Shown piece after piece: positions 17,117 to 46,583 of a stretch of 59,743 nt of DNA; position 1 is the stretch's first letter; each line of letters begins with the position of its first letter. The stretch covers positions 1 through 59,743 of IMG/VR virus record IMGVR_UViG_3300015263_000360. One strand, given 5' to 3'. Both the position numbers and the translations under genes were made by a program. Source of the DNA: a virus (taxonomy: Duplodnaviria > Caudoviricetes). The notes under the pieces are model-generated. The model made no database searches. It saw only the letters and a program-made list of their open reading frames with translations, and was not told where the DNA came from.

Positions 17117-20100
17117 ATGCCAAACGACTTCTTAGATCCATTCAAATGGTCTACTGCTGAGTTAGAGTTTAAAGATCCGTTTACCTGGACCGACCCAGAC
17201 CCTTGGGAAGATCGAGGCATCTTTGAGCGCAACACAGACACGGGGGAGATCCGCCTAAAGGCTATTCCTGGTGCGCTCGGCGGTCTTAGCGAAGACTACT
17301 ACAAGCAGCACGAAGAAATTACCAAAGACAAGGACAGTATCCTTTCTGATCTAGACCTTACTAACTGGGGTAAAGAGGATTCTTCTAACCCAGCCTACAA
17401 CCTTGCGCTTGGCGCTGGTGTGGGCTTGTCTAGAATGGGCACCGATATCTATCATGGCGGCTCTTCTGTCTACTGGGATATGATTGGTGCTGGATGGGAC
17501 GCGATTGGCGCTGAGGATTTGGCTGATCAAGCAGAGTCCTACGCTCGTTACCATAAAGAAGTCAAACAAGAGTACCAGGATGCTTATCAAGAGCTTCGTC
17601 CCACCGTTAATCCCAAAGATGATGGTATATTAGACCAATTCATCACTGGAGAAAACGACCCATGGAAGAAGTTTAACGACTTTGCATTCTTCTTTGGAGA
17701 GAACGCTGCTCCGATGTTTGCTGCATCTGGGCTTGGATCTGTGGCTTCACTTGCCACAAGAGGGGCGTTCACTGCTGCCGAAGCTGGTGGCTTTATCACT
17801 CAGGCCCTGTACGGAGCGGACACATTTCAAGACTCTTATCTAGAAACCAGAGAACAGGGTCTAAGCGTGATCCCTGCTGCTGCGGCTGCTGGATCAGCGG
17901 CTATCATCAGCGGGAAGCTTGAGCGATATGGCTTTGAGAACATCATGCGCCCTGGTCAAGGTATCATCAGAAGCACCATCGAGGGTGCTCTTAAAGAAGG
18001 AATAACTGAAGGCACCCAGCAATTAGCCACGGGTACAATTAATGAGGTCATGCCGGTGGCAATGAATGAGGGCATCAAGGGCCTAGTGGATCCTAATCAG
18101 ATCCAATGGGGAGATTTCTTCAAAGAGGTCAGAGAGAACACCCTGGGTGGAGCCTTCATTGGTGGTCCTATCAAGGGCGGAATTACCGGGATCAACCGAC
18201 TGCTGGCCGCTGAACAAAAGAAGCCCCTGGCAGATGTGCGCTTTGACGAGCTAAGCGAGAAGCAAAAGGAGTCTCTCAACAAGGATCTAGCGGTGTTGAA
18301 GACCACCATGTACGGGCGCGGTCTTGGTCAATTAGGATACTCCGATATACACAGACCTTACGTGGAAGCATTCCTTACAAAGTGGGGCCACGTTACAGAC
18401 TTCAAGAATGGGCTAGAAGAAGCCATTCGGCAAGAAGCTGATGCGTTCATGCGGTCGAAGTCGTCCACCCTGAAGTCCCTGTCAGAAACACAGGTACAGG
18501 CTGAGACTCTTGGCAACATGGAGTTCACGGAAAACCCAGCCCCCACAGAGAAGCCTCCTATCGACGTGGACCACGAAGAAGATATCCCTGATTTCTGGGA
18601 AATCCTGCAAAGAGACGTGCCACAGCAACAGGCTCCAAATGACTGGAGAACTGTACAGAAAGATTTCCAGTCACGCTTAAACGCTGCAGAGACCATCATG
18701 GACACCTTTGGTGTGCTAGATGCAGAGACTGTGAGATCTATCGACCTTGGATTCCTCGCCTTTATTGGCGATGGCCGCTCTGGTCTACTCACGCCCGCTC
18801 AGAGAGAGAGAGCGATTAACCTCTACGAGCGCATGGCTCGGGTGGCCACGGACAAGAAAGACATTAGCACCGTGTTTAGCACTCTTGAGCTCTTGCAATC
18901 TGATGCGGACCTACTGCCACAAGCCACAGCGGACCAGCTAGCTCCGTTATTCCAGCAACTAGATCAAGTTCGTAGCATTGACACCGATATCACGGTGAAG
19001 TCGCAGGCTGTTAACGCGGCCATTGCTTCTATTAAAGATCAATTTGGTGGGAACATCACCAGCCAGGCAGAGGATCTACTTGCTGATCTGCAGGCGGATC
19101 TGATTTCTCAAGCAGATGAGATTAGAGCTAGCTCGTCAGAGGCCGATCCTATCGTCCGGAAGCTGAACGCTCTAGCTGCCAATGTAGGCTCGCTCCTGCC
19201 AAGTCGCAAGCAAGCCACACCGAGTACCACACAGGAAGAAGAGTTCCAAGCCATGGACTCCTATGCCACAGACATTCACACAGTGGCAAAGAGCGTGGGT
19301 GATGATGTAGACCTTCTTCGTAGCCTGTTTAACTCTATGGTCACCACTAGAGTTAACATGGGATCCACTCCGGAAACAGGCGTGGGGCTAAGCACACGCG
19401 AAGTGCAGACCATGTCTCGTCAGTTAATGGATGATGTAAATGTCCAGGAGCTGATGAAGCAAATCTTAACGAAGGGCGAACAGGACATCCTCACAGCTGC
19501 GGCAAATGGGATGCCAATACAGAACGCAGAGACAGCCATTGACTGGGCTGCCGTGGAAGAGCGAGTGCTCACCGCACGTGTCGGAGCTATCGACAACAAG
19601 TGGAGAAAGGCCGCTCAGCAAGCCAGTGCTCAGGGCAGAGATAGTCTATTCTTTAAGGTAATGGGTGGTAAGCCACATCAAGATTCAGCTATTAAGTCGG
19701 CCAGAGTATCTGCACAAGCTTCTTCTGATCTCATGTCGCAGATTTGGGAGAAGCGTAAGGAAGTGGATGAACTTCGTAAACTGCTTCGCAAGGCCAAGCG
19801 AATTGGCGTCACTTACGGAGACGACCAGCAAGCTGCGCTTATAGATCTGTACCAAGATAGCTATGACACAGCTTCCGAGTCGCTAGCGCATCACGAAAGA
19901 GAAGTGAGTAACCTCACCAGAGCTCGTAAGCTAGTAGAAGAAGCAGAAGCAGCGCTCTGGGACACTGCCTTTGACACAGACAAGAGTGGCGATATCGACC
20001 TGGCGGTAAAAGACAGCGACAGAAAGCTAGCTGTAGACACCTTAATCTATTCTCTTAAGCGTGAGGTGTTTGCTCACGCCTCTTCTCGAGATCTTAATGA

Positions 20101-23100
20101 TCCTAATGAGAGAACAGCTGTTGTTAAGTCTATTGCAGACGTGCTCACGCGCGCCGGCGTGACGAAGAAGAGAGCCCTCCGTTCGGACAGAGCCCGTGCT
20201 TATCAGGCCCTTATACAAAGCGGCCACGTGCTTCCCTTCAACACCTTTTTAGAGTACGAGAAGGCCGTAAAGACTCAGGCTTTTCCTCCAATTCCTCTGA
20301 TTGAGCATTTCGTTCCTGCTGGAGTGGCTGAAGATATCTATGGATTCCTTGTAGCGCACGAGGAGGCGGCTGGGGATGAGTCTCAGATTCAACCCCCCAC
20401 TGATGCAGAGCGCATTGCGCTTGCCAGAGCCAAGATGTTCCTCCGTAAGTATGCGAATGCCATGGTTCATGGCCTTCCAAGAGAGGATACCACGTCCTGG
20501 GGTCAGCAACGGCTTTGGGGGGCAGTTACCAACAAACTCGACAAGGACTCAGGAAAGCATGCTAATGCAGTTCGATCTGGGATTCTTCTAGAAAGAACAT
20601 ATAAGAAGCTTTCGTTTCTTAGAGCAATTATCCGGCAAGGTGAGCAAGCCATCAAGGAGGCAAAGGGCCTCAAGATGGGTGGTTCTAAGGTTAACCCTGG
20701 GTGGATTCAAAAGCTAGAAACCGAACTAGCTAACCTAAGGCAAGAAGAGAAGAATGTCAGACAATTTCTAGGCAACCTTTCGCCTAAGGGTAGATTCTAT
20801 GGTCCCGCAGGCACGGCCTACTCGTCTGCAAGCTATGGTCTAAAGATCTCTGAATTCTGGAAAGTGCTTCCAGAGCTTCGTCAGGACCTTGAACAGGGCC
20901 TGGTAACTCCTTCCACTGAGCTGAAGGGCGACCCCTTACACAAGACGGTACAGGATAAGTACACTGAGTTCTCGGAAGAAGAGGATCCGTCAAAGCGTGA
21001 GGTGGTTGAAGCTGTCCAAACAGACATGGCCTCATCCACTGGTGTGGATCTTGGAAGACCAAACCGCGTTCGTCAAATCACGGACCTCGAGGTTATGCGT
21101 CTGATGGCGCCAGACATCTACGCTCAAGCCCACGAACGTGCAGATGTCCTGATCAACTTCTATCAAGTGGCCAAGGGACTAGGGTATACATTTCGAGCCG
21201 GTGCTGTAACTGAAGCGGCCCTATCTGAGCCTCTGTTGACGCCAGCTAAAGAACAAGCTCTGAGTTACCTTGAGCGGTTCTATGATGCAGCAGTGGAGGC
21301 AGTGGGGGTGGTAGGAACTCCGGCAAACATCGCAAATATGATGCTGGAAGCAGGTTCTCGTCCAGAATCTATTCGCCTGGGCGTGGCGTTAGTTGCTCGA
21401 CTAGTAGATCGAGCCACGGTGCAATCCGGGATGAGCAGAATTGATGCTGTACGGATGATTGTTCCGCATGTGCTCGCAGTGGAAGAGAACCCAGATGTGG
21501 CCGCAGGGGAAAAAGCTGAAGGTCCTTACGGAGAAATGCGCGGAGGAGCAAACCCAGTCATATTGTTAAACACAGAACCCGTTACCGGATTTGATAGATA
21601 TCATAAGGGCTCCACGTTAATCCACGAAGTGTTGCATGGGCTGCTGGAAAGTGGTGCAATTAGAAAGTTGCTTCCGCCTGAACAGATAGCAAGGCTTGAG
21701 CTATTTCTTGGTGAACAAATTCCAGAGTTCGGAGCAATCCAAAAAAAGAAAAAGATCTCCGTTAGAGGACACGAGCTTTTTGCATCTGGATTAGAGAGAG
21801 TGGCCTCTCTTCACGAGTCAGAAGACCCAGTGCTGAATCGCGCGTTTATTGCGTTACGAGAAGATGCAGTGGATGCATTCACTTCACTGACTAAGGACGG
21901 GGTATTTTCCAATACATCTGGCGTGGCCACTTTTGGCTTTCCCATGATAAACGGAACCGCTGAGGTGTATGCCACGCTTTTCTCTGGCGACAAAGCTCCT
22001 ATGCACATTCTTCCTAGGCTTGCAGTGCCTCGCCAGTTTAGCACAGTAGTGGGAGACAGCGTGGATGGTATTATCATTCACCCAGGGTCCAGAATCGCAA
22101 ATGAAATCCAGTCAATCTCTGGGCTAAACATCTCCTGGGCTATGTTTGATGATATCTTCAAGGCACTGGACGATGCCTCGCTCATTGCAGCAGGGGCTGT
22201 GGAGCGCATTGCTCAAATGAAGCGCACTGCACCAAAGTCCACGCCTGGGCTTACGTACAACGACTTTGTTGAGAACGTGCTTGGCTTAGATCCCAAGAAC
22301 ATCAACGATGAGTATTCTAAGGTGCTCAGGGACGCTCATAAGCTTTCGTTGGATTTTCGTACAGACAAGAAGCGCATCGGCAATAGAGCGAGTATGATAC
22401 AGCAAATTGACCTCACCACTCACAGAGCTTCTGAGGGAGGGGAGATTGCTCTGATGCTTAGGGCCATGCGGGACTTGACTTATCCGCTTCCTTTTGGAGA
22501 CACGGGCACTGCGCAGACTCCGTCGAGCAGACCCACTGCTCTAAGAGAGCAAATTGCACACAGCAGACTAGACAAAGAGGTGGCAGACGCCACGGCCCCG
22601 CTAGCTGGAGTGCAGCTAGACACGGTAGAAAAGGTTATTGACCATTATCTCCGTCTTTCTGCCTCCCCGTTTACCAATCCGGAAGATATTTCCGGTAAAA
22701 GCGCGGTACAAACAGCGTTTCACAAGCTCTGGGCTGTTGTGAAGAACCCTGGGAAGTACTTTGACTCTCGTACTATTGACCTAGAGCGCATTTTACGCAG
22801 TCACGGCTTCACTTCTGAGTACTTCCGCCTCTACAATCAAGCTGGAGTGCTTGCTCAGGCGCGTGAAAACGTGGAACACGATGTGATTGTCTACCAAAAC
22901 GGCAAGTGGGTCAGCATCGGAGAGGGTTTACAGCCTCGTATTGACAGAATTCCTCCTGAAATGCGTGAAGACACGTTCAGATACCTGGCCGCAAGAAGAA
23001 CTCTCGAGCTGGTGGCCAGAAATAAGCGCCTGATGGACAAGTATGAGACCGATTTACTGAAGTGGGAGGCTGGAGAGTACGAAGGTAAGTTCCGTCCGGA

Positions 23101-25762
23101 CAGGCCTAAGACCGTGGAGCTGTCTGCAGACACAATAGCAGCGGCAGTGGTGGCTAAGTACTATCTTGAAGCTCGCTATGGTAAGGAAGGCGGGGAAGTC
23201 GGCAAATTTGCTAAGTCTATCGTGGACTGGGGACACACTGCCATTGTTGACAAGCTTCGTCACTACGGAATGCTCTCGGATAAAGAGGTAAGCGACCTTA
23301 AGGCTAACGGCGAGTGGTGGATTCCTCTTGTTTCTGCCATGGATCACGAGTCCTTCCCCACGGAAAGCATCCCGAATGAGGGAGCTAGAGGCGCTCTGGC
23401 GAATCTACGTGGATTCAGCGGTGAGATCATCCACCCTCTAGAGGAGATGATTGACCGCGCTCAAAAGATCCACATTCTTGTGTCGAATCAGGCTATCCGC
23501 AATGCAGCTCTCGCGGCCATTACTGTGGATCCACGAACTGGGCAGGCTTATTCGGCGGAGCACCTCAAGGCGATTGGGGTGGAGCGTCTGACAGAAAGAG
23601 TGCACCGTCAGATCACGCCACAGGAGTGGCAACAACTCCCTCCGAGCGAAAGAGCGCAGTACACGGTCAAAGGTACCACTAAGTACTACTCCGTGCTAGA
23701 TGAACCTATTGACCGTATGTCGTTCTCGTGGTGGGCAAAGCAGAATTCAGGGAAACTTCCTCACGTGTATTCTCGTTGGATGAATGGGAGGGTTGAGTAC
23801 TATACAATCACCAACAGCGAGATCAAGGAAGCCATAGATTCGATCCCGCCCAAGCAGCTTGGTCCAATGATGAAGCTGCTCTCGGCCACTACACGGTTTG
23901 TTGGTAGCATGATCACCCACGGTCCTATGTTCATTCTGAACATGCCGTTTAAGGACTTCCCGAATGCTATCAACAGAAGCAAGTCTGGTATGAACGTGCT
24001 CACTATCGTCCCTGACTTCATTCGCGGACTAGGAGCAGCTCTGCCGGAGATTTTCCCCACTCTGATGCAGGAGTTTCCTGAGCACTTCGGTCTCTACGCC
24101 AACCGAAGAAAGGGTCTGGCATCACAGACTTCGTTCATGTCCACCTTCAATGAGGCTGTTTCTTCTATTTACTTCCAGAAGGAAGGCTATGAACTCCTTC
24201 CTGACCGCAATGGAGTGAAGCCGCCCAAAACTCTTCGGGCCATGAGAGCAGTCTGGCACGATATAGTGGCGGGCGGTACGAAGGCCGCTGAAGAAACGGT
24301 GGCCATAAAGACTCTAAAGAGACTGCCATCTGTGCTGCGCACTCCACTGCAGCATGTCACTGCTGGTGCCAAGATGGCCTGGGCCGGACTTGGAGCCTTA
24401 TCGTCGTGGACGGATGCCGCGCTCAGAATGCGTGAACGTGAGATGGTAAAGCGGGGCTTGTTTAGTGAACTCGACCGCTTCCGTGATACGCAGAACAGGC
24501 TAAGGAAGGATCAAGAAGCAATTGACGCCATGGCTAAGATTGGTGATGCTATCCCGGATGATTACATAGATGCCCTGGATAGGCAGATCACCCTAGACTT
24601 CAGCAGAAAGGGCGATGTGGTGCAGAAGATCGCAGCGGCCAAGATGTTTGCTGGCCCCATGTTCCAAGACACCACAACCACATTGCAGCGGCTGTTCTCG
24701 CCCAATGGAGCAGAGCGTGCCGCTTTCATTCTACGAGCATTGTCGTCGTACACGATGCCTGCGATTGTCAACTATCTCAGATGGTATGATGACGACGACT
24801 GGAGAAAGCTGTCCGCTTGGGACAAGTATTCCTACTTCCACTTATGGAAGAATGACGACACCTCGTTCAAGAAGGTTCCTAATGGCCTTGGTGTGATGAG
24901 CGTGTTGTTCAAGGACATCCCAATCGGCATTATGGAAATGGTCTCTAATCGTGACCAATACGCCATGGAGAAACTTAAGAATCAAATCGTAGAGCAGACA
25001 CCCCTCATCTTTGTTCCTGTCGTGCAGGACGCCAAGGAGTGGCTTGTCAATGTCATGCCTACAATTCTAGAACCCGTGGCAGAAGTGGGGGTGAACTGGA
25101 ACACGTTCGCCAACGCTCCTGTGGATCCTTATGACAAGTTCACGAGCGCTCCTCGCCCTGAGGATCGCGGACTTGCCAAGTATGGGGTAATTGAGAAGTT
25201 CCTTGCTAATGCCATGGGAACCTCTCCACTCAAGGTGGGGCATGTGCTTCGCAGCACATTCCCTGGAGTGGGACAGATTGCCTACGGAGGGGTCAACGAG
25301 GTTCTAACCTCTGTGTACAGACACATCACAGGGGACAATGAGGTGGGTTCCGAGTACAAGGCTACACCCAAAGAGATCGTGCTCAAGCTTGACACAGGTA
25401 GAACCTGGGGTCCAGCGTCTCAGCCTGTCAATGACCTGTACTTCGCCTATGATAGGGCGGCCAAGGCTCACAAGTCTATGACAAAGGCTTATGAAAGCGG
25501 CTACACGGCTAAGGGTGACGCTATCTGGAAGGGATCTCCTGAGCTAGCCTACTATGATCTTCTGAAATCTGGTTACGGTATGATCACACAACTCAAGATT
25601 AAGAAGGCGCAGTACCTTAAGGCTAGTAACGAACCAGATTCCGTGAAGGAACTTACCTCTACAGAGGTATTTGACAGACAAATGACGATGCTTGCGGATG
25701 AGATCCTAGCAGAGATGCGAAGAGCCTCCTCTCGCACACCAGCACAAGGAATAAAAAAATAA
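17117..25762 (+). CDS. Giant internal virion/ejection protein with HExxH zincin-like motif and LPD38-like C-terminus
   Basis: 2881 aa; TLIHEVLHGLL plus downstream HELFA; DDDWRKLSAWDKYSYF...KVP resembles LPD38. Confidence 0.7.
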   Translation: MPNDFLDPFKWSTAELEFKDPFTWTDPDPWEDRGIFERNTDTGEIRLKAIPGALGGLSEDYYKQHEEITKDKDSILSDLDLTNWGKEDSSNPAYNLALGAGVGLSRMGTDIYHGGSSVYWDMIGAGWDAIGAEDLADQAESYARYHKEVKQEYQDAYQELRPTVNPKDDGILDQFITGENDPWKKFNDFAFFFGENAAPMFAASGLGSVASLATRGAFTAAEAGGFITQALYGADTFQDSYLETREQGLSVIPAAAAAGSAAIISGKLERYGFENIMRPGQGIIRSTIEGALKEGITEGTQQLATGTINEVMPVAMNEGIKGLVDPNQIQWGDFFKEVRENTLGGAFIGGPIKGGITGINRLLAAEQKKPLADVRFDELSEKQKESLNKDLAVLKTTMYGRGLGQLGYSDIHRPYVEAFLTKWGHVTDFKNGLEEAIRQEADAFMRSKSSTLKSLSETQVQAETLGNMEFTENPAPTEKPPIDVDHEEDIPDFWEILQRDVPQQQAPNDWRTVQKDFQSRLNAAETIMDTFGVLDAETVRSIDLGFLAFIGDGRSGLLTPAQRERAINLYERMARVATDKKDISTVFSTLELLQSDADLLPQATADQLAPLFQQLDQVRSIDTDITVKSQAVNAAIASIKDQFGGNITSQAEDLLADLQADLISQADEIRASSSEADPIVRKLNALAANVGSLLPSRKQATPSTTQEEEFQAMDSYATDIHTVAKSVGDDVDLLRSLFNSMVTTRVNMGSTPETGVGLSTREVQTMSRQLMDDVNVQELMKQILTKGEQDILTAAANGMPIQNAETAIDWAAVEERVLTARVGAIDNKWRKAAQQASAQGRDSLFFKVMGGKPHQDSAIKSARVSAQASSDLMSQIWEKRKEVDELRKLLRKAKRIGVTYGDDQQAALIDLYQDSYDTASESLAHHEREVSNLTRARKLVEEAEAALWDTAFDTDKSGDIDLAVKDSDRKLAVDTLIYSLKREVFAHASSRDLNDPNERTAVVKSIADVLTRAGVTKKRALRSDRARAYQALIQSGHVLPFNTFLEYEKAVKTQAFPPIPLIEHFVPAGVAEDIYGFLVAHEEAAGDESQIQPPTDAERIALARAKMFLRKYANAMVHGLPREDTTSWGQQRLWGAVTNKLDKDSGKHANAVRSGILLERTYKKLSFLRAIIRQGEQAIKEAKGLKMGGSKVNPGWIQKLETELANLRQEEKNVRQFLGNLSPKGRFYGPAGTAYSSASYGLKISEFWKVLPELRQDLEQGLVTPSTELKGDPLHKTVQDKYTEFSEEEDPSKREVVEAVQTDMASSTGVDLGRPNRVRQITDLEVMRLMAPDIYAQAHERADVLINFYQVAKGLGYTFRAGAVTEAALSEPLLTPAKEQALSYLERFYDAAVEAVGVVGTPANIANMMLEAGSRPESIRLGVALVARLVDRATVQSGMSRIDAVRMIVPHVLAVEENPDVAAGEKAEGPYGEMRGGANPVILLNTEPVTGFDRYHKGSTLIHEVLHGLLESGAIRKLLPPEQIARLELFLGEQIPEFGAIQKKKKISVRGHELFASGLERVASLHESEDPVLNRAFIALREDAVDAFTSLTKDGVFSNTSGVATFGFPMINGTAEVYATLFSGDKAPMHILPRLAVPRQFSTVVGDSVDGIIIHPGSRIANEIQSISGLNISWAMFDDIFKALDDASLIAAGAVERIAQMKRTAPKSTPGLTYNDFVENVLGLDPKNINDEYSKVLRDAHKLSLDFRTDKKRIGNRASMIQQIDLTTHRASEGGEIALMLRAMRDLTYPLPFGDTGTAQTPSSRPTALREQIAHSRLDKEVADATAPLAGVQLDTVEKVIDHYLRLSASPFTNPEDISGKSAVQTAFHKLWAVVKNPGKYFDSRTIDLERILRSHGFTSEYFRLYNQAGVLAQARENVEHDVIVYQNGKWVSIGEGLQPRIDRIPPEMREDTFRYLAARRTLELVARNKRLMDKYETDLLKWEAGEYEGKFRPDRPKTVELSADTIAAAVVAKYYLEARYGKEGGEVGKFAKSIVDWGHTAIVDKLRHYGMLSDKEVSDLKANGEWWIPLVSAMDHESFPTESIPNEGARGALANLRGFSGEIIHPLEEMIDRAQKIHILVSNQAIRNAALAAITVDPRTGQAYSAEHLKAIGVERLTERVHRQITPQEWQQLPPSERAQYTVKGTTKYYSVLDEPIDRMSFSWWAKQNSGKLPHVYSRWMNGRVEYYTITNSEIKEAIDSIPPKQLGPMMKLLSATTRFVGSMITHGPMFILNMPFKDFPNAINRSKSGMNVLTIVPDFIRGLGAALPEIFPTLMQEFPEHFGLYANRRKGLASQTSFMSTFNEAVSSIYFQKEGYELLPDRNGVKPPKTLRAMRAVWHDIVAGGTKAAEETVAIKTLKRLPSVLRTPLQHVTAGAKMAWAGLGALSSWTDAALRMREREMVKRGLFSELDRFRDTQNRLRKDQEAIDAMAKIGDAIPDDYIDALDRQITLDFSRKGDVVQKIAAAKMFAGPMFQDTTTTLQRLFSPNGAERAAFILRALSSYTMPAIVNYLRWYDDDDWRKLSAWDKYSYFHLWKNDDTSFKKVPNGLGVMSVLFKDIPIGIMEMVSNRDQYAMEKLKNQIVEQTPLIFVPVVQDAKEWLVNVMPTILEPVAEVGVNWNTFANAPVDPYDKFTSAPRPEDRGLAKYGVIEKFLANAMGTSPLKVGHVLRSTFPGVGQIAYGGVNEVLTSVYRHITGDNEVGSEYKATPKEIVLKLDTGRTWGPASQPVNDLYFAYDRAAKAHKSMTKAYESGYTAKGDAIWKGSPELAYYDLLKSGYGMITQLKIKKAQYLKASNEPDSVKELTSTEVFDRQMTMLADEILAEMRRASSRTPAQGIKK

Positions 25763-35246: not shown

Positions 35247-36590
35247 CTAATCCTTGTATGGATCGAATGTACTACTTGGTGCCATGAGAACCACTCGGGG
35301 CTTCAAAGTGTGAAGCACATCAATTGTGCTAGCGTGTAACTTCATCACGTCTTCCATCTTCCTGTAGCACACGGGAGCTTCATCCACTCCGCCTCCTCTA
35401 AGAATCACGTTGGCATCTCTAACCGATTTGGTTAGATCTGATATCCCCACTTGAGGTGGTGCGATAGTGGTGAAAGAATAATCCATCTTCAGGTCTTTCT
35501 TACAGACAGGGCACTTAGGATAGTCTTCTTTAAAGACCGCGCTCGGAGAGAACCTCTCATTCACTCTTGTGCATCCAACGGTACGGCAGTACCAAGTTTT
35601 TGATGTACGAAACTTTCCACGCGCTTGGGTTCTGCTCATCAGTCTACCCGTGCCGTGCACGGTGGAAGAGAGCAGCGCCTTCTGAAGAATTCGAGCCTCA
35701 CTATTCTCTTCAAGTAGAACCTTTCCCATTACAATATGGGCAGGCCCTGTCATGCTGCTTCCGATGAATGAGATCTGTCCCGCATGGGCAGGTGTGGCTC
35801 CCTTACGGTGCACCCACACAGTGCCGATATCTGGATGAGTTTCTTTCCAGATGAAGTTGTGATGATTGTGCACAGCGTAGATTGTTTTGGCACCAAGCAC
35901 CTTAAGCGCTTGATCAATTACCCAGGCTCTTCCTATCTTGGCATAGTCACCGGCAAGATGCATGGCCGTAAGATAATGCTGTGCCTTATCAGACGTGTCC
36001 ACTAGAGTCGACTTGCTGAGGTCGGTTCTATTAGAGAAGGAATGCTCACTACCCCAGGAGTTAAACCCATTGCAAATGTTCCAGCCTAGTCCCCTAGAAC
36101 CGAAGTGTACTGCCACCCACACAGCATTAGTGGATGGTTCTATATAAAGGTTTACAAAATGATTCCCGGAACCTATGGTTCCTAGTTGGTTTCGACCCAG
36201 CTTCTTTAAGCGATCCACTTCTAGCTTTGGGATAGCCTCCCATCTCTCGTCTTCAAAGATCTCGTGGTCGGTTGGAGAGGAACTAGAGGTATTACTTTTT
36301 CCAATCCCAAACGTGAGTGTCTTTTCGAGTTCATCGGCTATCTTGTACCACTCTGAGGGAAGTAAGTCAGACGCCGAGACATTGGTTTTCACGGCCATGT
36401 TCCCGCACCCGATGTCATAGCCAGCACCTGCTATGAGGATACGGTTCTTGAAAGCTAGCACCCCTCCCACCGGAACCACGTGTCCTAAATGCCCATCTGC
36501 CAGAAGCGCACTACGTTCTGCTAGCTTACTACAATCGCGCATTTGTGTTAAGGTATTGGTATCGTGGGAACCGATGATTGTTAGTGTCAT
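35247..36590 (-). CDS. rtcB: RtcB-family RNA ligase with Cys4 insertion
   Basis: DGHLG..VPVGG, GYDIGCG, LGTIGSGNHF, HFGSRG, HHNF, HRKGAT, HGTGR.MSR, DEAP.CYR. Confidence 0.95.
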   Translation of the reverse strand: MTLTIIGSHDTNTLTQMRDCSKLAERSALLADGHLGHVVPVGGVLAFKNRILIAGAGYDIGCGNMAVKTNVSASDLLPSEWYKIADELEKTLTFGIGKSNTSSSSPTDHEIFEDERWEAIPKLEVDRLKKLGRNQLGTIGSGNHFVNLYIEPSTNAVWVAVHFGSRGLGWNICNGFNSWGSEHSFSNRTDLSKSTLVDTSDKAQHYLTAMHLAGDYAKIGRAWVIDQALKVLGAKTIYAVHNHHNFIWKETHPDIGTVWVHRKGATPAHAGQISFIGSSMTGPAHIVMGKVLLEENSEARILQKALLSSTVHGTGRLMSRTQARGKFRTSKTWYCRTVGCTRVNERFSPSAVFKEDYPKCPVCKKDLKMDYSFTTIAPPQVGISDLTKSVRDANVILRGGGVDEAPVCYRKMEDVMKLHASTIDVLHTLKPRVVLMAPSSTFDPYKD

Positions 36591-36604
36591 CTATTACCGC
36601 CTTG

Positions 36605-37417
36605 TTATACAGGGGGGAGCTCTAGCTTCCACGTGTCTACAAAATCTCGGGCTATCTTCGTGACTACATCCTCGCTTACCCAGGCGAAAGACGCGGCAAG
36701 CCCTGCTTGTTGATCCCAACGTGACTGGTTCCTGGGCTTGTTCGCTTCCTTCACTGCTTCGTTTGTTTTGTTGTAGACCCATTCAACTAGAGCATCATTA
36801 AAGATCCACGTGTTAGGCAGCGTGCGATACTCCAAGCCATAAGGCTTGGGACGAAATGCTCCTATGTTCCCATAGAGTTTCTTTCTATGGTAGTCAGGAG
36901 CAGCTACAAAGAAAGGGATCCCTAGATATGTATCAAGCAAGCTTACTATATCTCTCACGGTTTTGAAGGTCATCTTCTTTAAGGGCTCTAGCCCTAGGTG
37001 TAGATGTCCTCCTGCACTCCGCATGTTCTTGTTAGAGCTGTGCGCAGGCTGAGTCAAAGCACCGCTGTATGCATCGAAGTCTGGGTCACACCCAAAGGTG
37101 CGTGCTTGTGGAGTGGCGAGTTGTTTTTTGCTGAACTCCGCTGATGCACTTTTCAAAAGCCCACAACTGTGAGCTTCAGCAATTGTATTTACAATGGACA
37201 ATCCTTCTTTGATCTTACTTGCGAAGTTACGCAGATCCGCAGATGGACTGATGGTAAACTCAGCGGCCACGTTGTCTTCAAGGATACAAATGTTATCACT
37301 AACCGGGAGGGGCTCGTGCTTCTCTCCGCCCACCTTACCCTCTGCAGACTCTGCTTCATCCCCTCTGCTAAAGAAAACTTCCGGGTCAGCACCGATCGTC
37401 ACTAGCCGAATGTCCAT
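36605..37417 (-). CDS. phiEco32-like COOH-NH2 ligase (type 2)
   Basis: TIGADPEVF, EDNVAAEF, FGCDPDFDAY, RSAGGHLHLG, RKKLYG..GAFRPKPYGLEYRTL; GGAG RBS before 37417. Confidence 0.9.
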   Translation of the reverse strand: MDIRLVTIGADPEVFFSRGDEAESAEGKVGGEKHEPLPVSDNICILEDNVAAEFTISPSADLRNFASKIKEGLSIVNTIAEAHSCGLLKSASAEFSKKQLATPQARTFGCDPDFDAYSGALTQPAHSSNKNMRSAGGHLHLGLEPLKKMTFKTVRDIVSLLDTYLGIPFFVAAPDYHRKKLYGNIGAFRPKPYGLEYRTLPNTWIFNDALVEWVYNKTNEAVKEANKPRNQSRWDQQAGLAASFAWVSEDVVTKIARDFVDTWKLELPPV

Positions 37418-37422
37418 ACTGT

Positions 37423-37720
37423 CTCCAAGAGAAAGAACAACTCGGACGCTCTCAAGTCTGGTGAGTCTGTCCATCGAGCCGCATTTCCGTAACCATTAAC
37501 GTAGGTTCGAATGCTCCAGCCGGGTATGCCAACCAGCTCACCACGTAATCGACAAGAGCTGACCGTCGAAACGGAATCACTATATGTCTATTTAGCAGGT
37601 GACGCTATTTCGAAACCACTTCAGTGGTCTCTTGGCTCGTAGACGTGAGCTACTCGCTTGTATTTAAGGGATACAAGACCCCTGTACAGTGTTAGAAGTG
37701 AGGCCCAACTGTGCTCGGAG
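37423..37720 (-). ncRNA. Unclassified ~300-nt structured RNA or 5' leader
   Basis: No credible ORF; paired ends and several hairpins on the - strand (CUUGUAU/AUACAAG, GAGACCAC/GUGGUUUC, CAGCUC/GAGCUG, GCAUU/AAUGC). Confidence 0.6.
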
Positions 37721-37722
37721 AG

Positions 37723-37824
37723 CTATGGACCGTTGCGCCACTGCCTCGTCCACTCAATAATTATCCATCTCATGATAACTACCACTAGTATTATCGTAAG
37801 TAACCAACCGATAACACCTTTCAA
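37723..37824 (-). CDS. Small single-TM peptide (MKGVIGWLLTIILVVVIMRWIIIEWTRQWRNGP)
   Basis: TTG start after AGGAG; hydrophobic core. Confidence 0.5.
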   Translation of the reverse strand: MKGVIGWLLTIILVVVIMRWIIIEWTRQWRNGP

Positions 37825-37837
37825 TGCCACTCCTATC

Positions 37838-37914
37838 TGGTACCCACGGAGGGACTCGAACCCCCAACGCTCGGATTTTAAGTCCGACGACTCTGCCAAT
37901 TGGTCTACGCGGGC
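37838..37914 (-). tRNA. tRNA-Leu(TAA), short variable loop
   Basis: Cloverleaf, TCGGA-CTTAAAA-TCCGA, GGTTCGAGTCC, encoded CCA. Confidence 0.92.
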
Positions 37915-37943
37915 TCCTAATCATTTCCCCACTCCTTTTATGC

Positions 37944-38020
37944 TGGTGCTCTCGGGAGGACTTGAACCTCCAACCAACAGCTTAGAAGGCTGCCGCTCTA
38001 TCCTGTTGAGCTACAAGAGC
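37944..38020 (-). tRNA. tRNA-Arg(TCT)
   Basis: GCAGC-CTTCTAA-GCTGT, GGTTCAAGTCC, CCA. Confidence 0.95.
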
Positions 38021-38025
38021 TATGT

Positions 38026-38403
38026 GGAGTCAGGCTCCCACCACTGCCTTTGACCCCGTGTGCACCCCCAACAGCTCATGACGAACCCTTGGTGCACTGC
38101 CCTAACGTCTTGAGCTTGGAGGAGGTACTAGCTCCTGTCACCCCAAACCAAGACGGTAAAAGTTGGAGGATAGAGAGATCTGCCTTTGGTCGGAGAACCT
38201 TCCATTACCAGATAGCAAGTCTATGAGGCACAGTGGCCTTGACTTGGCTCTCATGAGAGCGCTGTCTGACTAGTTATCTTCGCCTACGCTAGCTCAGCGA
38301 CATCACATACCAGACTGTTTAGCGTGATACTAAAGAGCTGCTCTCTCGGATTTAGCAGGGTCCGGTTCCTGGGTGTTTCCAATTCGGGAGCCGACATGAC
38401 TCC
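38026..38403 (-). ncRNA. Unclassified ~380-nt multi-branched structured RNA
   Basis: Terminal helices GGAGUCA/UGACUCC and GGCUCCC/GGGAGCC; many internal hairpins; no credible ORF; lies between tRNA-Pro and tRNA-Arg. Confidence 0.7.
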
Positions 38404-38430
38404 GTCGTGAGGCACACCTGGCCAGAACTT

Positions 38431-38508
38431 TGGTCGGGACGAGAGGATTTGAACCTCCGACCCCTCGCTCCCAAAGCGAGTGCTCTACGCAACCTGAGCT
38501 ACGTCCCG
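38431..38508 (-). tRNA. tRNA-Pro(TGG)
   Basis: CTCGC-TTTGGGA-GCGAG, GGTTCAAATCC, CCA. Confidence 0.95.
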
Positions 38509-38901
38509 TGTATTTTCTTTCCATGTTGTGACACTCAGCAACTTCTCGCGCGGGATGAACCAGTATGCTACCAACCCAGTTACCTCGTTCCCAGGGTAGC
38601 GTCCCGCTTCGTTTCCTAACAACGCCCTCAGTTCATCCACCAGAACAGGTTGAGAGGATGTGTTTGCTGCCACGATCAGCATCTTCAAGCTAACCCAATT
38701 TCTTAGCTCGATATAATCTCGAATGGCTTGTAGCTTGTTTAGTACTTCAGGCGTGGGTCCAGTACCAAAACCACCGAAGGAATAACAACCGCAGTTGTTC
38801 TTGTCTCCTGACAGGTTCCCATATACCCATCCGTTTTGTTGATCACGGATTTCATACTGTCGGTATTGATCTAGTAGCTTGTACAAATAGAAGGTTGTCA
38901 C
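38485..38901 (-). CDS. Hypothetical protein in the tRNA array (3' end overlaps tRNA-Pro)
   Basis: GTG start after GGAG; NNCGC motif. Confidence 0.65.
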   Translation of the reverse strand: MTTFYLYKLLDQYRQYEIRDQQNGWVYGNLSGDKNNCGCYSFGGFGTGPTPEVLNKLQAIRDYIELRNWVSLKMLIVAANTSSQPVLVDELRALLGNEAGRYPGNEVTGLVAYWFIPREKLLSVTTWKENTRDVAQVA

Positions 38902-38926
38902 TTGGTATCTCCTGGAAGATTTAGAT

Positions 38927-39003
38927 TGGCACGAGAGGTAGGACTTGAACCTACAACCTCTGGGTTCAAAGCCCAGCGCTCTAACCAATTGAGCTACTCT
39001 CGA
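38927..39003 (-). tRNA. tRNA-Gln(TTG)
   Basis: CTGGG-CTTTGAA-CCCAG, GGTTCAAGTCC, GCCA end. Confidence 0.93.
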
Positions 39004-39006
39004 TCA

Positions 39007-39082
39007 TGGTGGACCGCAAGAGATTCGAACTCTCACTCCCCTGCGTGCAAGGCAGGTGCTTTCCCAGTTAAGCTAGCGGCCC
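39007..39082 (-). tRNA. tRNA-Ala(TGC)
   Basis: CCTGC-CTTGCAC-GCAGG, G3:U70, CCA. Confidence 0.95.
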
Positions 39083-39084
39083 TC

Positions 39085-39161
39085 TGGTACCGGAGAGCGG
39101 ACTCGAACCACTGACATTCTGCTTGTAAGACAGATGCTCTAACCACCTGAGCTACTCCGGT
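39085..39161 (-). tRNA. tRNA-Val(TAC)
   Basis: TCTGT-CTTACAA-GCAGA, CCA. Confidence 0.95.
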
Positions 39162-39212
39162 ATATCGTGTTGCGAGTATGCTGGTTGTGTTTACACCACT
39201 GCTAAAGGAACT

Positions 39213-39288
39213 TGGCTCTAGAGACTGGGATCGAACCAGTGTCCTTCCGGTTAACAGCCGGCTGCTCGTCCAACCGAGCTCCTCTAGA
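39213..39288 (-). tRNA. tRNA-Asn(GTT)
   Basis: CCGG-CTGTTAA-CCGG, GGTTCGATCCC, GCCA end. Confidence 0.92.
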
Positions 39289-39358
39289 ATATCAAGAGCC
39301 GCCAGAGGTCGGAGGTCCGGCCCCTAATTTATCGGCGTAGCCGGGCGGCATATTTACT

Positions 39359-39450
39359 TGGCTGAGGCAGTAGGATTTGAACCTACGGGACCGCAATGTG
39401 TCCAGTGTGTTAGCAACACACCGCATTAAGCCAGACTCTGCCATGCCTCA
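39359..39450 (-). tRNA. tRNA-Ser(GCT)
   Basis: GTGTG-TTGCTAA-CACAC, long variable arm, GCCA end. Confidence 0.93.
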
Positions 39451-39451
39451 G

Positions 39452-39529
39452 TGGGGTGACCGATGGGACTTGCACCCACAACCACCGGGTCCACAACCCA
39501 GCGCTCTATCTAATTGAGCTACGGTCAAC
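39452..39529 (-). tRNA. tRNA-His(GTG)
   Basis: CTGGG-TTGTGGA-CCCGG, G-1/C73, CCA; T-loop reads TGCAAGT. Confidence 0.9.
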
Positions 39530-39531
39530 AC

Positions 39532-39657
39532 GGGATGAAACCCCTAAGTGATACCATTGACTGGGAGGTTCGTCAACGGGTTGGAGCCTGTACATCCAGG
39601 TCTCTACCCAGCCTAGCATCCATCTTGGGTACCAATGGTTTTCCATCAAGCGGTCCC
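39532..39657. ncRNA. Rod-like structured element with resemblance to the 6S RNA closing stem
   Basis: ACCATTG/CAATGGT, CTGGGA/TCTTGG, GGGTTGG/CCAGCCT, CCTG/CAGG nested pairings. Confidence 0.4.
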
Positions 39658-39672
39658 AAGCACATGTAAGTA

Positions 39673-39749
39673 TGGTGCTCATGAGAGGATTCGAACCTCC
39701 AACATCTAGATTCTAAGTCTAGCGACTCTACCAATTGGCCTACATGAGC
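39673..39749 (-). tRNA. tRNA-Leu(TAG), short variable loop
   Basis: CTAGA-CTTAGAA-TCTAG, GGTTCGAATCC, CCA. Confidence 0.93.
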
Positions 39750-39813
39750 TATAGGGAAGGAGGTAAATTATTAAAATTTTCCTTGCTCGGGCGGAGCAAT
39801 GGTTCCTTCCCCT

Positions 39814-40266
39814 TTAAATTGCTTCTAGCCAGGTGTCTATCTCATGTTCTGGTTTGAGATAATACGAACTGTGTTCCAAGTCTTTAACCGCATGGTTAAA
39901 CACCGGGTTCTTTCGCATTATCTCCTGTATGTAGCACAGCGTGTCCCGTTTAGGAGTGAAGTGCCAATAACTAAGAGGTGTCTCTCTTTCGTATTTACTT
40001 TTACCCAGATGAAAAATCTTGAAAGGTTCAGGCACCTCAGGGAGATGGAGGTTAGAGCCCTGTATTATAGTGGCTTCTTTAGCAGCCATCCAGAAAAGCC
40101 ATGGGAGCACCATCTTTTCATTAGGGTACACGCTTGCCACGTACCCTCCACAGTTGGCCGGCAGGGGAAAGAAAGGAGGGTAGTGGTAAAATCCCCCATC
40201 TTTATAAGTCGCTCCATGAAGGTTCCAGGCGCTAACGTTGTCTAACCACTCTTGCAGCTTGTACAT
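39814..40266 (-). CDS. Hypothetical protein in the tRNA array
   Basis: 150 aa, AGGA RBS, PANCGG motif. Confidence 0.65.
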   Translation of the reverse strand: MYKLQEWLDNVSAWNLHGATYKDGGFYHYPPFFPLPANCGGYVASVYPNEKMVLPWLFWMAAKEATIIQGSNLHLPEVPEPFKIFHLGKSKYERETPLSYWHFTPKRDTLCYIQEIMRKNPVFNHAVKDLEHSSYYLKPEHEIDTWLEAI

Positions 40267-40282
40267 GTTCCGTCCTATATGT

Positions 40283-40356
40283 TGGAGCGAGTAATCGGAC
40301 TCGAACCGATCTCTCTAGCTTGGAAGGCTAGGGCACAACCTCTATACCACACTCGC
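40283..40356 (-). tRNA. tRNA-Gly(TCC)
   Basis: CTAGC-CTTCCAA-GCTAG, TCCA end. Confidence 0.95.
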
Positions 40357-40358
40357 AT

Positions 40359-40388
40359 AAAAAGGTGGCCAGATCCGGCTTGGCCACC
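40359..40388 (-). terminator. Rho-independent terminator or processing hairpin
   Basis: GGTGGCCA...TGGCCACC followed by T-run on the - strand. Confidence 0.65.
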
Positions 40389-40415
40389 AAGGACAACATG
40401 AACAGTGTTGACAGC

Positions 40416-40688
40416 TTAGCCAGCGGTCAGTTCGATTCGGCCCGACTGCATGGTGCGGGTACCGAACGACTTCTCCGGCACACCGTACTCAGCGAGGGCA
40501 CCCTCGAGGTCATTGCGCAGCCCAAAGAGTCCAGTCTTCAGACTCTTCGGGAAGCGAAACTTCCCGAGAACAGCGGCGAGTGCAGCAGCCGTGTCCTCCG
40601 ACACTGTGATGTTGATGACGACCTTTTCCTTAACGGAAACTCCCATCATGCATCTCCTGTGTGTAACCCGTTTGTAAAGAACCATCAC
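40416..40688 (-). CDS. Hypothetical protein (start probably MMGVSV)
   Basis: GGAG RBS upstream of internal Met. Confidence 0.6.
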   Translation of the reverse strand: MMVLYKRVTHRRCMMGVSVKEKVVINITVSEDTAAALAAVLGKFRFPKSLKTGLFGLRNDLEGALAEYGVPEKSFGTRTMQSGRIELTAG

Positions 40689-40737
40689 GGTGGGTTAGTC
40701 GTGAGCTGGCTCGCGCGAGATTATTCTTAGATGGCGC

Positions 40738-40812
40738 TGGAGCCCTTTCCAGGAATCGAACCCGGCTCTGAGGTTTACAAAACCCCGGCATCGCCAACAA
40801 TGCTTAAAGGGC
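40738..40812 (-). tRNA. tRNA-Thr(TGT)
   Basis: GGGGT-TTTGTAA-ACCTC, GGTTCGATTCC, TCCA end. Confidence 0.93.
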
Positions 40813-44025: not shown

Positions 44026-44883
44026 TCATGCTGCAATCAGTCCTTCCATTAACGCCTTAGATGCGCAACTGTAGCACAAGCGAACCTGTTTGTCAATGTA
44101 ACAAGAGTCGTTCTCTAGAAATTCCTCTTGGCATTGGTCGCACGTGGCACCCGCGTCTATCCAATCCCACCCATTGGTTCTTAGCTCTGTTACCCTGATC
44201 CTGGGGAGACCATAGTTCGGAGTCGTATCCACCACGGTTGGGGTATGGGCGAATTTTCCTTTACTCCCACCCCCACCACTCTCTGTCTGGGAAGTAAGCT
44301 GGTACTGCTGGTAGTGACTTTTTTTTTCGTAGTCTTTCCAGCCCTCGTTTGAGTAGTGAACCCCAGTGGTTTCATCCTTAGACCAGGACTTGGGTTGTGT
44401 AATCGCCAATCTCCCCAGGTTGTCCAGGAAAACCAGTCTGCTACTCCCCGCCTTGTCTGCCACGAGGTTAAGAATAGCCTGATTCGTGTGGAAGTTACGT
44501 GGTAACTTCTGCAGCACATCATGCATGTATTGCTTGGTGTCCGAGTTGTTATCTTTCAGGTTTTTATTATAGTAACCCGGAATTACTCCATTGTGGAAGA
44601 GGAGGAGATTCTTGTTAACCCAGAACGGATGTACATTCTGCACGCTCACTGTACCGTGGGTGCGTATCCTGAAATGCAGAACGAATTGACTGTTCTTGTG
44701 TTCGTCCCAATGCTTGCGGTATAACTTCCACAATCGCTTCTTACTGTTGAGTTCTTTAACCACAGACAGGCGGCCGTTGTGCGCATAAGCAAACCCCCCA
44801 CCATCTGAGTTCCGTTCCCACAATCTATAGAACTGACCCTTCGATAGAGCCACTTTCCTGGGGCAGATTGCAATAATGCACAT
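44026..44883 (-). CDS. Class II (Ntn) glutamine amidotransferase
   Basis: MCII (Cys2 nucleophile), N.DG.G, HFRIRTHG, NVHPF, HNGVI, SDT; C-terminal CxxC..CxxC. Confidence 0.9.
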   Translation of the reverse strand: MCIIAICPRKVALSKGQFYRLWERNSDGGGFAYAHNGRLSVVKELNSKKRLWKLYRKHWDEHKNSQFVLHFRIRTHGTVSVQNVHPFWVNKNLLLFHNGVIPGYYNKNLKDNNSDTKQYMHDVLQKLPRNFHTNQAILNLVADKAGSSRLVFLDNLGRLAITQPKSWSKDETTGVHYSNEGWKDYEKKSHYQQYQLTSQTESGGGGSKGKFAHTPTVVDTTPNYGLPRIRVTELRTNGWDWIDAGATCDQCQEEFLENDSCYIDKQVRLCYSCASKALMEGLIAA

Positions 44884-46583
44884 TACGCTACACTCCTATA
44901 GCCCTTAGTCAAGGGTCGATGTATCACCTTGATATTACGAATCAAAGGACTCTTGTTCCTTTTCGTGTCAGTCAACAGCTTGACATCTAACCAGCTAAGC
45001 GTGGCTTTGTGATACTTCTGTAGCTGTTCCACTGGAAACACCACGCGAGTACCGTGTTGAGCAGTCCAGATTTCCACATCGGATATCTCGATGCGCTCAA
45101 GGTCGAGTCCCATATAGTAACAGGACCATCGCAGCATTGGCTGCCGATTTGGCTCTCCTGCGTCCCGTCCGGCCGTTAGCGTGGCCCTGCCTACCATCTC
45201 GTTGGTTTCTGAATCCCTTATGTAAAATGTTACAGAGGCAGGAGACGATTCTAAATCTGACTGATGATCAAACCAATGATGTGCGGGATTAAGATGGTTC
45301 AGTGTCAGCCTAGGGTTACCCGAGATAAAGATTGCTGATGATTCCACCTCATGGTACTTTGCAGCGAGCATTGCTTCACGGCACATAGAAAGAGCTTGCC
45401 TCTCATTCCAGCATGGCCCCTGTAAAATGAAGTAAGCCATGGGTATCGCTTCTCCGTCTGGTGTGGTGTGCTGAAAGTTTACCACGGCTGTGCTTGTCAA
45501 AGGCCCGATGGCTCCCACACGAGAGTTACGCTCAGCAATCTTTCCCTCAAGAGAAGAGGGCTTTAAAGCAGCATTGCCCACGGTAATCTTTGAGATCTTG
45601 GGTGACTTGATATTGGCGGCCTTGTTGATGCACTTCTGGGTCTTAGCTGCAGCATAAGGGAGTTCCTTCTTATGCTTTAAGAGCCACTCCACAAATCCCG
45701 GTATGCTCATCTGCTGAAAAGAGATGGCCGCTGTATACCTCCTCACGGCTTCCACGAGTTCCACGTTTGCCATGATCGAGTCAGGATTTAAAGTGCCCCG
45801 AAATACTCTGATCTCCACGGTATGAGCGGTGCTGTTTACCACCGAATGATGGTCGTCATGTGTTCCCGCAAGCAGTGCTGGATTAATACCATGGGTAAAC
45901 GCATATCTTGCCGGGTCCGTTTCATACGGTAGGAGATAAGTGGTGCATGCTCTCCTAACAAATGCCTTCGGATCCTTGTGAAACCATGCAAACCGTAAGA
46001 CCTTCTTCAAATCAGTGCGATTGCTGTAAGCCAAGAAGAATGCCGGATTCCGGTGCACAAATGCCTGGAACCTGAGCTGGTGTAGATCTCCCCAAAAGGC
46101 TGATTTTGAAATGTGCACGTGCATACCGCAAGTGTTCCCTTTGTATGAAGTGAACCCTGCAGTTTGCAAGTCTTTGCACAATTTCTTCCAAAGAGGATAG
46201 CTCTCGTGCCAGAAGTTCAGCGTCCAAGGATGACTGACAAGCTCCACGCCATCCTCAAGAGAAGCGTCTTGCTTCACATAGAGCTGCAGCTTTCTTATCA
46301 TGGGCTCCACGTCTTGGATAGCCGCGTAGGACCACTGTGTTCTACCATGATAGGTGTTAGGCTCTCCTCTATTCCAAAGCCACACTTCAGAAGGCGTGTC
46401 CTGATTGACCGTGGTAGTCCTTTGTCTTACTCCTCTCCACCAGCTCTCTAACTTCTCTCGTGCAGGAGGTAGGAGTTCTGTTTCGAGTTCCACGCCAAAG
46501 AAAACATGGGCGTTCTCATTTTCTTTTTTTGTCCAGGAGAAACGTGGTGTGGGTTTGTGTCCCCATGCGTTTACTTCGATCAT
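44883..46583 (-). CDS. Putative amidoligase (COOH-NH2 ligase fold) with C-terminal extension
   Basis: FGVELETE, KQDASL..GVELVSHP, CGMHVHIS, TVEIRVFRGTLN. Confidence 0.88.
   Translation of the reverse strand: MIEVNAWGHKPTPRFSWTKKENENAHVFFGVELETELLPPAREKLESWWRGVRQRTTTVNQDTPSEVWLWNRGEPNTYHGRTQWSYAAIQDVEPMIRKLQLYVKQDASLEDGVELVSHPWTLNFWHESYPLWKKLCKDLQTAGFTSYKGNTCGMHVHISKSAFWGDLHQLRFQAFVHRNPAFFLAYSNRTDLKKVLRFAWFHKDPKAFVRRACTTYLLPYETDPARYAFTHGINPALLAGTHDDHHSVVNSTAHTVEIRVFRGTLNPDSIMANVELVEAVRRYTAAISFQQMSIPGFVEWLLKHKKELPYAAAKTQKCINKAANIKSPKISKITVGNAALKPSSLEGKIAERNSRVGAIGPLTSTAVVNFQHTTPDGEAIPMAYFILQGPCWNERQALSMCREAMLAAKYHEVESSAIFISGNPRLTLNHLNPAHHWFDHQSDLESSPASVTFYIRDSETNEMVGRATLTAGRDAGEPNRQPMLRWSCYYMGLDLERIEISDVEIWTAQHGTRVVFPVEQLQKYHKATLSWLDVKLLTDTKRNKSPLIRNIKVIHRPLTKGYRSVA

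Follow-up and report, generated by a model that had tools for sequence, protein, structure and literature searches.

A non-coding interval with a candidate closing helix between tRNA-Pro and tRNA-Arg in the tRNA array of a marine-sediment phage

The window analyzed here is the whole 59,743-base stretch of DNA, which represents a complete virus record bounded by 144-nt direct terminal repeats. Structural genes occupy the + strand and include those for the large terminase, the portal, the major head protein and a single 2881-residue ORF (positions 17117 to 25762). A replication and metabolism arm on the − strand encodes a Prim-Pol/helicase, RusA, AAA_24, RtcB and a phiEco32-type amidoligase set consisting of a COOH-NH2 ligase, Amidoligase_2 and GATase. 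No cultured phage has a capsid protein more than 35% identical to the one encoded here, and the more distant matches include Bcep22/PEp14-like podophages. We take the genome to belong to a lytic-type podophage from marine sediment.

ARAGORN identifies 13 tRNAs in the genome, 12 of which form an array on the − strand (37838 to 40812). Flanking the array on the same strand are the RtcB and COOH-NH2 ligase genes on one side and the GATase and Amidoligase_2 genes on the other (35247 to 37474 and 44026 to 46583), an arrangement that suggests an RNA-repair or modification module around the tRNAs. Phage tRNA clusters are now viewed as counter-defense modules. Between tRNA-Pro and tRNA-Arg lies a 410-nt gap (38021 to 38430), wherein a 378-nt segment had been proposed from its letters to be a multi-branched non-coding RNA that nearly fills the space between the two tRNAs, and the segment does occupy 378 of the 410 nt. 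The COOH-NH2 ligase and RtcB genes are located downstream of this gap on the same strand as the candidate, with RtcB about 1.4 kb away. The features of the region, in the direction of transcription of the − strand, are as follows.

40416 to 40688, 39814 to 40266 and 38485 to 38901, − strand: ORFan genes interleaved with the tRNAs, each with a positive codon score
38431 to 38508, − strand: tRNA-Pro(UGG) with an encoded CCA (ARAGORN; Rfam tRNA, 61.9 bits), the upstream neighbor of the candidate on the transcribed strand
38404 to 38430, − strand: 27-nt spacer from the 3′ end of tRNA-Pro to the first base of the closing helix (read from the sequence)
38026 to 38403, − strand: candidate non-coding RNA, 378 nt (no ORF, no Rfam family, minimum free energy (MFE) of −136.8 kcal/mol, z −1.63)
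38397 to 38403, − strand: P1 5′ strand, GGAGUCA (perfect 7-nt inverted repeat with 38026 to 38032; pair probability at least 0.98)
38386 to 38392, − strand: P2 5′ strand, GGCUCCC (perfect 7-nt inverted repeat with 38033 to 38039; pair probability at least 0.99)
38356 to 38362, − strand: P3 5′ strand, GACCCUG (partner 38052 to 38058, including one G-U pair)
38253 to 38347, − strand: predicted branched domain A, RNA positions 57 to 151 (helix probabilities of 0.77 to 0.93)
38216 to 38246, − strand: hairpin B, CAAGUC/GACUUG with AGGC/GCCU (partition function, sequence)
38156 to 38215, − strand: poorly structured central stretch, RNA positions 189 to 248, containing CUCUAUCCUCCAAC (unpaired in the centroid, no pair with a probability above 0.7)
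38060 to 38155, − strand: hairpins C (CGUCUUG/CAAGACG) and D (GUGCA/UGCAC) (partition function, sequence)
38036 to 38044, + strand: one copy of the 9-mer TCCCACCAC, overlapping the P2 3′ strand
38033 to 38039, − strand: P2 3′ strand, GGGAGCC, directly adjoining the 3′ strand of P1 (inverted repeat, partition function)
38026 to 38032, − strand: P1 3′ strand, UGACUCC, with ACAUA between it and tRNA-Arg (sequence, partition function)
37944 to 38020, − strand: tRNA-Arg(UCU), 5 nt downstream of the candidate (ARAGORN, Rfam)

None of the three ORFan genes has a Pfam match, and the two that were checked against PHROGs have no match there either. The ORFan at 38485 to 38901 shares 24 nt with tRNA-Pro, and that at 40416 to 40688 has a hairpin and U-run 3′ of the gene, right before tRNA-Gly.

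The gap between tRNA-Pro and tRNA-Arg contains no open frame of its own, and the candidate itself lacks an ORF. The longest stop-to-stop frames that touch the gap, of 66 and 100 residues, both extend into tRNA-Pro, and reading TAG as Q or TGA as W opens no frame that is confined to it. Codon-usage log-odds, for which 23 long genes of the same phage served as the training set, are negative in all six frames of the gap (−0.31 to −0.42 bits per codon). By comparison, 151 in-frame gene windows average 0.30 with a minimum of 0.017, and each of the other three large gaps in the array has one clearly positive frame (0.16 to 0.28) with ribosome-binding sites. Among the 21 peptides from six-frame translation of the gap, none has a relative in 214 loci (best E value of 0.19). 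The frame and codon-score results therefore single out the gap as the array's only large non-coding interval, and the stretch from 38026 to 38403 is non-coding.

All 12 helix pairs that the sequence-only reading had listed are present at the places given for them on the − strand. The two outermost, GGAGUCA/UGACUCC and GGCUCCC/GGGAGCC, are perfect 7-nt inverted repeats with pair probabilities of at least 0.98. The P1 and P2 5′ strands are separated by a 4-nt bulge (UGUC), and on the 3′ side P2 is contiguous with P1 with no loop between them. Thus the ends of the segment are able to close as a 14-bp helix of 7 bp, a 4-nt bulge and another 7 bp. The set as a whole does not stand as one structure, because CUGCU/AGCAG and GACCCUG both use RNA positions 46 to 48 and are mutually exclusive. 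Likewise, GCUCUC is present with two possible GAGAGC partner copies. P3 appears in the MFE and maximum expected accuracy (MEA) folds, yet its pair probability is below 0.7, and part of the 27-nt spacer upstream has an alternative pairing with 38051 to 38063. When the fold originally proposed is enforced and completed, it reaches −126 kcal/mol, versus −136.8 for the unconstrained MFE.

The stability of the segment as a whole is barely above that of shuffled sequences (z −1.63), and when the entire 410-nt gap is folded the z value is −0.58. A folding energy no better than that of shuffles had been named in advance as grounds to abandon the proposal, and the results come close to this, with 6 of 100 shuffles as good for the segment and 79 of 300 for the gap. 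The opposite (+) strand of the segment folds better than the − strand (z −2.71), as does a neighboring protein-coding gap (z −2.81). Among 396 natural 378-nt windows from the same strand and genome, ranked after correction for G+C and G+U content, the candidate is 20th (z −1.56). Moreover, the frequency of the MFE structure in the ensemble is close to zero, and the centroid is unlike the MFE. The global fold is therefore not distinguishable from chance, and these values give the claim of a specific multi-branched structured RNA no support beyond it.

The closing 7+7-bp helix on its own is somewhat unusual, with p values that range, from one test to another, between about 0.004 and 0.24. With the ends as chosen in the sequence-only reading (40 nt), 7 of 2000 shuffles match the end-duplex energy. 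An unbiased treatment of the gap with 50-nt ends gives a z value of −2.36, matched by 2 of 150 shuffles; with 60-nt ends, 144 of 2000 shuffles match, and in 72 of 300 shuffles the MFE structure has at least 14 end-to-end pairs. We also compared 16 other inter-tRNA gaps, two from this genome and 14 from other viral contigs, and none has an end-duplex z value below −1.34. The evidence is thus mixed, in that the terminal closure stands out in some tests only.

Separately, a 363-nt interval on the − strand that separates tRNA-Leu(UAA) from the COOH-NH2 ligase gene (37475 to 37837) folds with a z value of −3.37, matched by none of 100 shuffles. Its centroid and MFE agree, such that its thermodynamic support is better than that of the candidate. 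At E≤10 it matches no Rfam family, and the 214 loci contain no relative. Within this interval, a 33-residue, strongly hydrophobic ORF at 37723 to 37824 (− strand), with a UUG start preceded at 5 nt by AGGAG, may encode a membrane micro-protein.

A search of the whole genome record with Rfam 15 at the gathering score returns tRNAs only. At E≤10, the region from 37900 to 38550 yields, besides tRNA, only far-below-threshold rows from eukaryotic or plastid families, which we take as chance. No known Rfam family thus matches the candidate at either level. Its first description had remarked that the RNase P P4 motif, a T-arm and a G3:U70 pair are absent, and our searches agree. The P4 motif GAGGAAAGUCC has 20 matches in the genome with at most two mismatches, none of them inside 38026 to 38403, and the T-loop consensus (GGUUCRANYCC-type) is absent from the same segment at up to one mismatch. 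Position 3 of P1 is an A-U rather than a G-U pair, and the 3′ tail is ACAUA with no CCA. ARAGORN finds no tmRNA in the gap, Rfam at E≤10 finds no tRNA-like (pseudo-tRNA) remnant there, and no TROVE/Ro protein occurs among 30 proteins scanned.

We searched for relatives of the candidate in several collections. A blastn search with "distant" settings against 50,697 phage records recovered tRNA parts only among the matches listed, and no place covering 80% of the query. Combined nhmmer and blastn searches found no homologue in 12 viral loci, in 95 viral or metagenome loci around relatives of the ligase, capsid and RtcB proteins, or in 119 viral loci that contain the D-arm word of the tRNA-Arg (1.08 Mb in total, with many tRNA arrays). 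Using the whole array as a blastn query against 214 loci, the tRNAs alone match. Covariance sub-models of the region 38060 to 38155 with hairpins C and D (R1) and of domain A (R2) returned self-matches only in 200 sources (1.65 Mb); 100 of the 119 D-arm loci were searched first, and then the remaining 19 together with 81 more loci and the phage's own genome. The proteins used as anchors led to ligase relatives at 43% identity or less, a single RtcB locus at 36% and two short capsid contigs at 68 to 70%, and these loci contain nothing similar to the candidate. A 150-aa ORF of the array and a PD-(D/E)XK-like protein have no relatives in IMG/VR.

Exact words taken from both ends of the candidate gave no more than chance matches. 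An 18-mer has no match in viral contigs, and a 3′ 17-mer matches two viral contigs, both times in apparent coding DNA and with no extension. A 5′ 20-mer occurs at four places in 596 Gb of prokaryote genomes (GTDB), versus about one expected by chance by our own estimate, with neither an extension nor a partner repeat at any of them. The stretch is present in one DNA sequencing run of a marine-sediment metagenome, its likely source, and no RNA run is listed. Among contigs of three runs from the source study, searched at 80% likeness, the source contig alone covers the gap, and no divergent copy was found. These searches of IMG/VR sequences yield no homologue, and because none was found in any collection searched, there is no covariation among relatives to read. 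Complementarity between the RNA and the rest of the genome reaches 12 to 13 nt, which is within chance, and that to the flanking tRNAs 8 to 9 nt, which by our own arithmetic is likewise within chance expectation.

To this non-coding, family-less stretch, which lies on the tRNA strand of the array and has its closing helix present, we tentatively assign the role of a spacer RNA, co-transcribed with the tRNAs, set free by the enzymes that process them and held shut by its terminal helix. We give this reading a probability of about 40%, and we infer transcription, processing, stability and any function alike. Transcription of the tRNA operon on the − strand would run through the stretch. RNase P cleavage at the tRNA-Arg 5′ end, combined with maturation of the tRNA-Pro 3′ end, would then leave a fragment of about 380 to 410 nt, whose ends could be held together by the 14-bp helix. 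Closed in this way, the end would look like an acceptor/T-stem minihelix and might shield the 3′ end from exonucleases, which could allow the fragment to survive as a stable branched RNA. Such an RNA would occupy the same niche as T4 RNAC and RNAD and as GOLLD and ROOL, in or beside phage tRNA clusters. In favor of a spacer RNA we count the position in a 12-tRNA array, with a tRNA of the same strand on either side, the pair probabilities of P1 and P2, and the unbiased end-duplex z value of −2.36. A simple scan found no terminator-like or promoter-like site on the − strand of the gap. Counted against it are the chance-level fold, the lack of a homologue and the overlap of TCCCACCAC with P2.

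Almost as likely is that the gap is a neutral spacer, or what is left of a small gene or tRNA genes that decayed long ago, wherein the hairpins arise by chance. Under this explanation, the pairing is what any sequence of equal length and 52 to 53% G+C gives, and the transcript is degraded after tRNA processing. The fold z values of −1.63 and −0.58 are consistent with it, as is the finding that the antisense strand and coding sequence fold equally well or better. The same is true of the 72 of 300 shuffles that close their ends with at least 14 pairs. Furthermore, when we examined inter-tRNA gaps of 200 to 800 nt in the 119 other viral loci, the longest open frame covered less than 60% of the gap in 7 of 56. 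ORF-poor gaps between phage tRNAs are therefore not rare, and this genome has 18 stretches of at least 120 nt that a crude gene map leaves uncovered. On the other side, no frame retains codon bias or has protein similarity, nor is a tRNA-like remnant found at Rfam E≤10. The perfect 7+7-bp closure is stronger than in the 16 comparison gaps, and phage genomes usually shed useless DNA, which argues against a neutral interval.

Several of the gaps in other viral contigs are ORF-poor, flanked by tRNAs on the same strand and 300 to 500 nt long, namely those at L193:9975-10428 and 10506-10975, L181:6648-7004, L107:6293-6795 and L158:11582-11888. These four loci contain no Rfam family other than tRNA, and none of the gaps has unusual end-to-end pairing.

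The 9-mer that overlaps P2 bears on a further, unlikely explanation, in which the stretch is a cis-acting operon or DNA element rather than a trans-acting RNA. It could be a processing spacer that sets the timing or order of tRNA maturation, a phage-specific promoter that drives the ligase-RtcB genes along with tRNA-Arg and tRNA-Leu, or the site of a DNA signal linked to TCCCACCAC. This word occurs eight times in the genome (3077, 12009(−), 28856, 29037, 30959, 38036, 42460 and 50348) versus 0.65 expected, a count reached by none of 100 shuffles, and one copy lies in the candidate at 38036 to 38044. It ties as the most frequent 9-mer of the genome, wherein related CCACCAC words are also frequent. 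Irrespective of which way the genes run, seven of the eight copies are on the + strand, and the word may be an orientation-dependent DNA signal, at a guess a Chi-like one. By a crude gene map worked by hand, six of the eight copies are inside predicted protein-coding sequence; the copy at 28856 lies in an uncovered stretch of the map spanned only by an unscored 153-aa ORF. The word is therefore not specific to the gap, and its mostly coding location elsewhere weighs against a cis element here. Equally, because part of P2 is a genome-wide 9-mer that occurs in coding DNA as well, that helix may be shaped by a cause other than RNA structure. Also in favor of a cis element, the COOH-NH2 ligase and RtcB genes lie downstream on the same strand. 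Opposing this, the gap contains no sigma-70-like promoter and has no intergenic motif of 16 nt or more in common with other gaps, and a 27-nt match of 78% between gaps is within chance.

It is very unlikely that the gap encodes one or more very small proteins. Short frames do exist, including a 37-residue AUG frame at the 5′ end, which is the ATG-started part of a 43-aa GTG ORF at 38284 to 38415, and a second AUG frame, of 25 residues, near RNA position 200. In addition, the 33-residue ORF just downstream (AGGAG-N5-UUG) looks genuine, so the phage probably codes micro-proteins. Within the gap, however, the codon score is negative in every frame, a spacing of only 2 nt separates the GGAG sequence from the 5′-end AUG that follows it, and the 25-residue frame has no Shine-Dalgarno sequence before its start. 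A MITE-like miniature mobile element, with P1 and P2 as terminal inverted repeats, is largely refuted: the imperfect 18/14-nt terminal inverted repeat, the non-coding body and a size within the typical MITE range recall such elements, but the stretch is present in a single copy in the phage, the four 20-mer matches in 596 Gb and the 17-mer matches in two viral contigs do not extend, and no target-site duplication is visible.

Weakest of all is the suggestion that the candidate is a very divergent member of the tmRNA, RNase P RNA, GOLLD, ROOL or Y RNA families, which the size and paired ends reminiscent of tmRNA and RNase P RNA, a phage tmRNA that adjoins tRNA-Arg in another viral contig, and the presence of RtcB 1.4 kb downstream, as in the rsr-Y RNA-rtcBA operons that exist in bacteria, do little to rescue given that Rfam at E≤10 and ARAGORN give no match, that the T-loop and P4 motifs are absent, that A3-U takes the place of G3-U, and that no TROVE/Ro protein is found. 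Taken individually, tmRNA is ruled out by the missing T-arm, the A3-U pair, the lack of CCA and the absence of an ARAGORN or Rfam match, and RNase P RNA by the missing P4 motif and the absence of an Rfam match. GOLLD and ROOL are ruled out because their Rfam models do not match even at E≤10, and a bacterial Y RNA is unsupported because, despite the presence of RtcB, there is no TROVE domain among the 30 proteins scanned and no Rfam match. The phage-contig tmRNA mentioned above (L131:4408-4725, − strand; ARAGORN "tmRNA*", tag ANDNFASFDLALAA) has as its neighbor a tRNA-Arg whose D-arm type matches that of this phage's own tRNA-Arg.

Returning to the spacer RNA that we favor, a more ambitious and rather doubtful version of it holds that the candidate is the first member of a new class of mid-sized (~380 nt) phage RNAs that reside in a tRNA array, are cut out by tRNA processing and act with the tRNA/RtcB RNA-repair module. 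An RNA of this kind might, for instance, counter tRNA-attacking host nucleases by acting as a decoy or scaffold. On the same doubtful footing, neither its sequence nor its fold would be related to those of GOLLD, ROOL, tmRNA and the T4 RNAs. If real, it would be a new and unrelated non-coding RNA embedded in a phage tRNA cluster. As a singleton from one sediment metagenome, the candidate has its value as a lead for when relatives or transcripts appear.

Comparison with established RNAs places these features in context. The candidate resembles tmRNA in its size class (~300 to 400 nt), in having its ends paired in a 7-bp helix and in lying beside tRNAs, as tmRNA does in phages. Bacterial RNase P RNA has a similar size, is also closed by a terminal helix and is multi-branched. 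A structural likeness to tRNA is that to the acceptor/T-stem minihelix substrates of RNase P, wherein the contiguous 3′ strands of P2 and P1, the 14-bp stack and the single-stranded A end have their counterparts. The two differ in that the 5′ strands of the candidate are joined by a 4-nt bulge, whereas those of tRNA are joined by the tRNA body. In place of an RCCA 3′ tail the candidate has ACAUA, and its nucleotide at −1 is C rather than U.

T4 RNAC and RNAD are about 120 to 140 nt in length, much shorter than the 378-nt candidate. Their expression is proven, whereas that of the candidate is presumed, and homology to them is absent from the blastn comparison with 50,697 phage records, where tRNA parts only are among the matches listed. 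As described in two sources (PMC3014915; PMC9697503), they are non-coding, are located in the phage tRNA cluster on the tRNA strand and have a function that is still unknown. The candidate is like them in lying within a tRNA cluster, on the tRNA strand, and in being non-coding.

GOLLD RNAs are often longer than 800 nt and ROOL RNAs average 581 nt, compared with 378 nt here, and both families rest on covariation across many sequences, whereas the candidate is a singleton. Published descriptions present both as large branched RNAs for which no protein partner is known and which are often near the tRNA islands of phages or prophages (bioRxiv 10.1101/2024.12.08.627333; PMC5737381). Our comparison with the 224 motifs of PMC5737381 was made through Rfam 15. 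The candidate shares with GOLLD and ROOL its place adjoining tRNA genes, in this case within a 12-tRNA array of a complete virus record. Several large RNAs whose function is unknown, namely GOLLD, ROOL and T4 RNAC and RNAD, thus sit in phage tRNA clusters, and if our reading is true, the candidate would be a further RNA in that niche, where its proximity to an RtcB RNA ligase would make it a test case for function.
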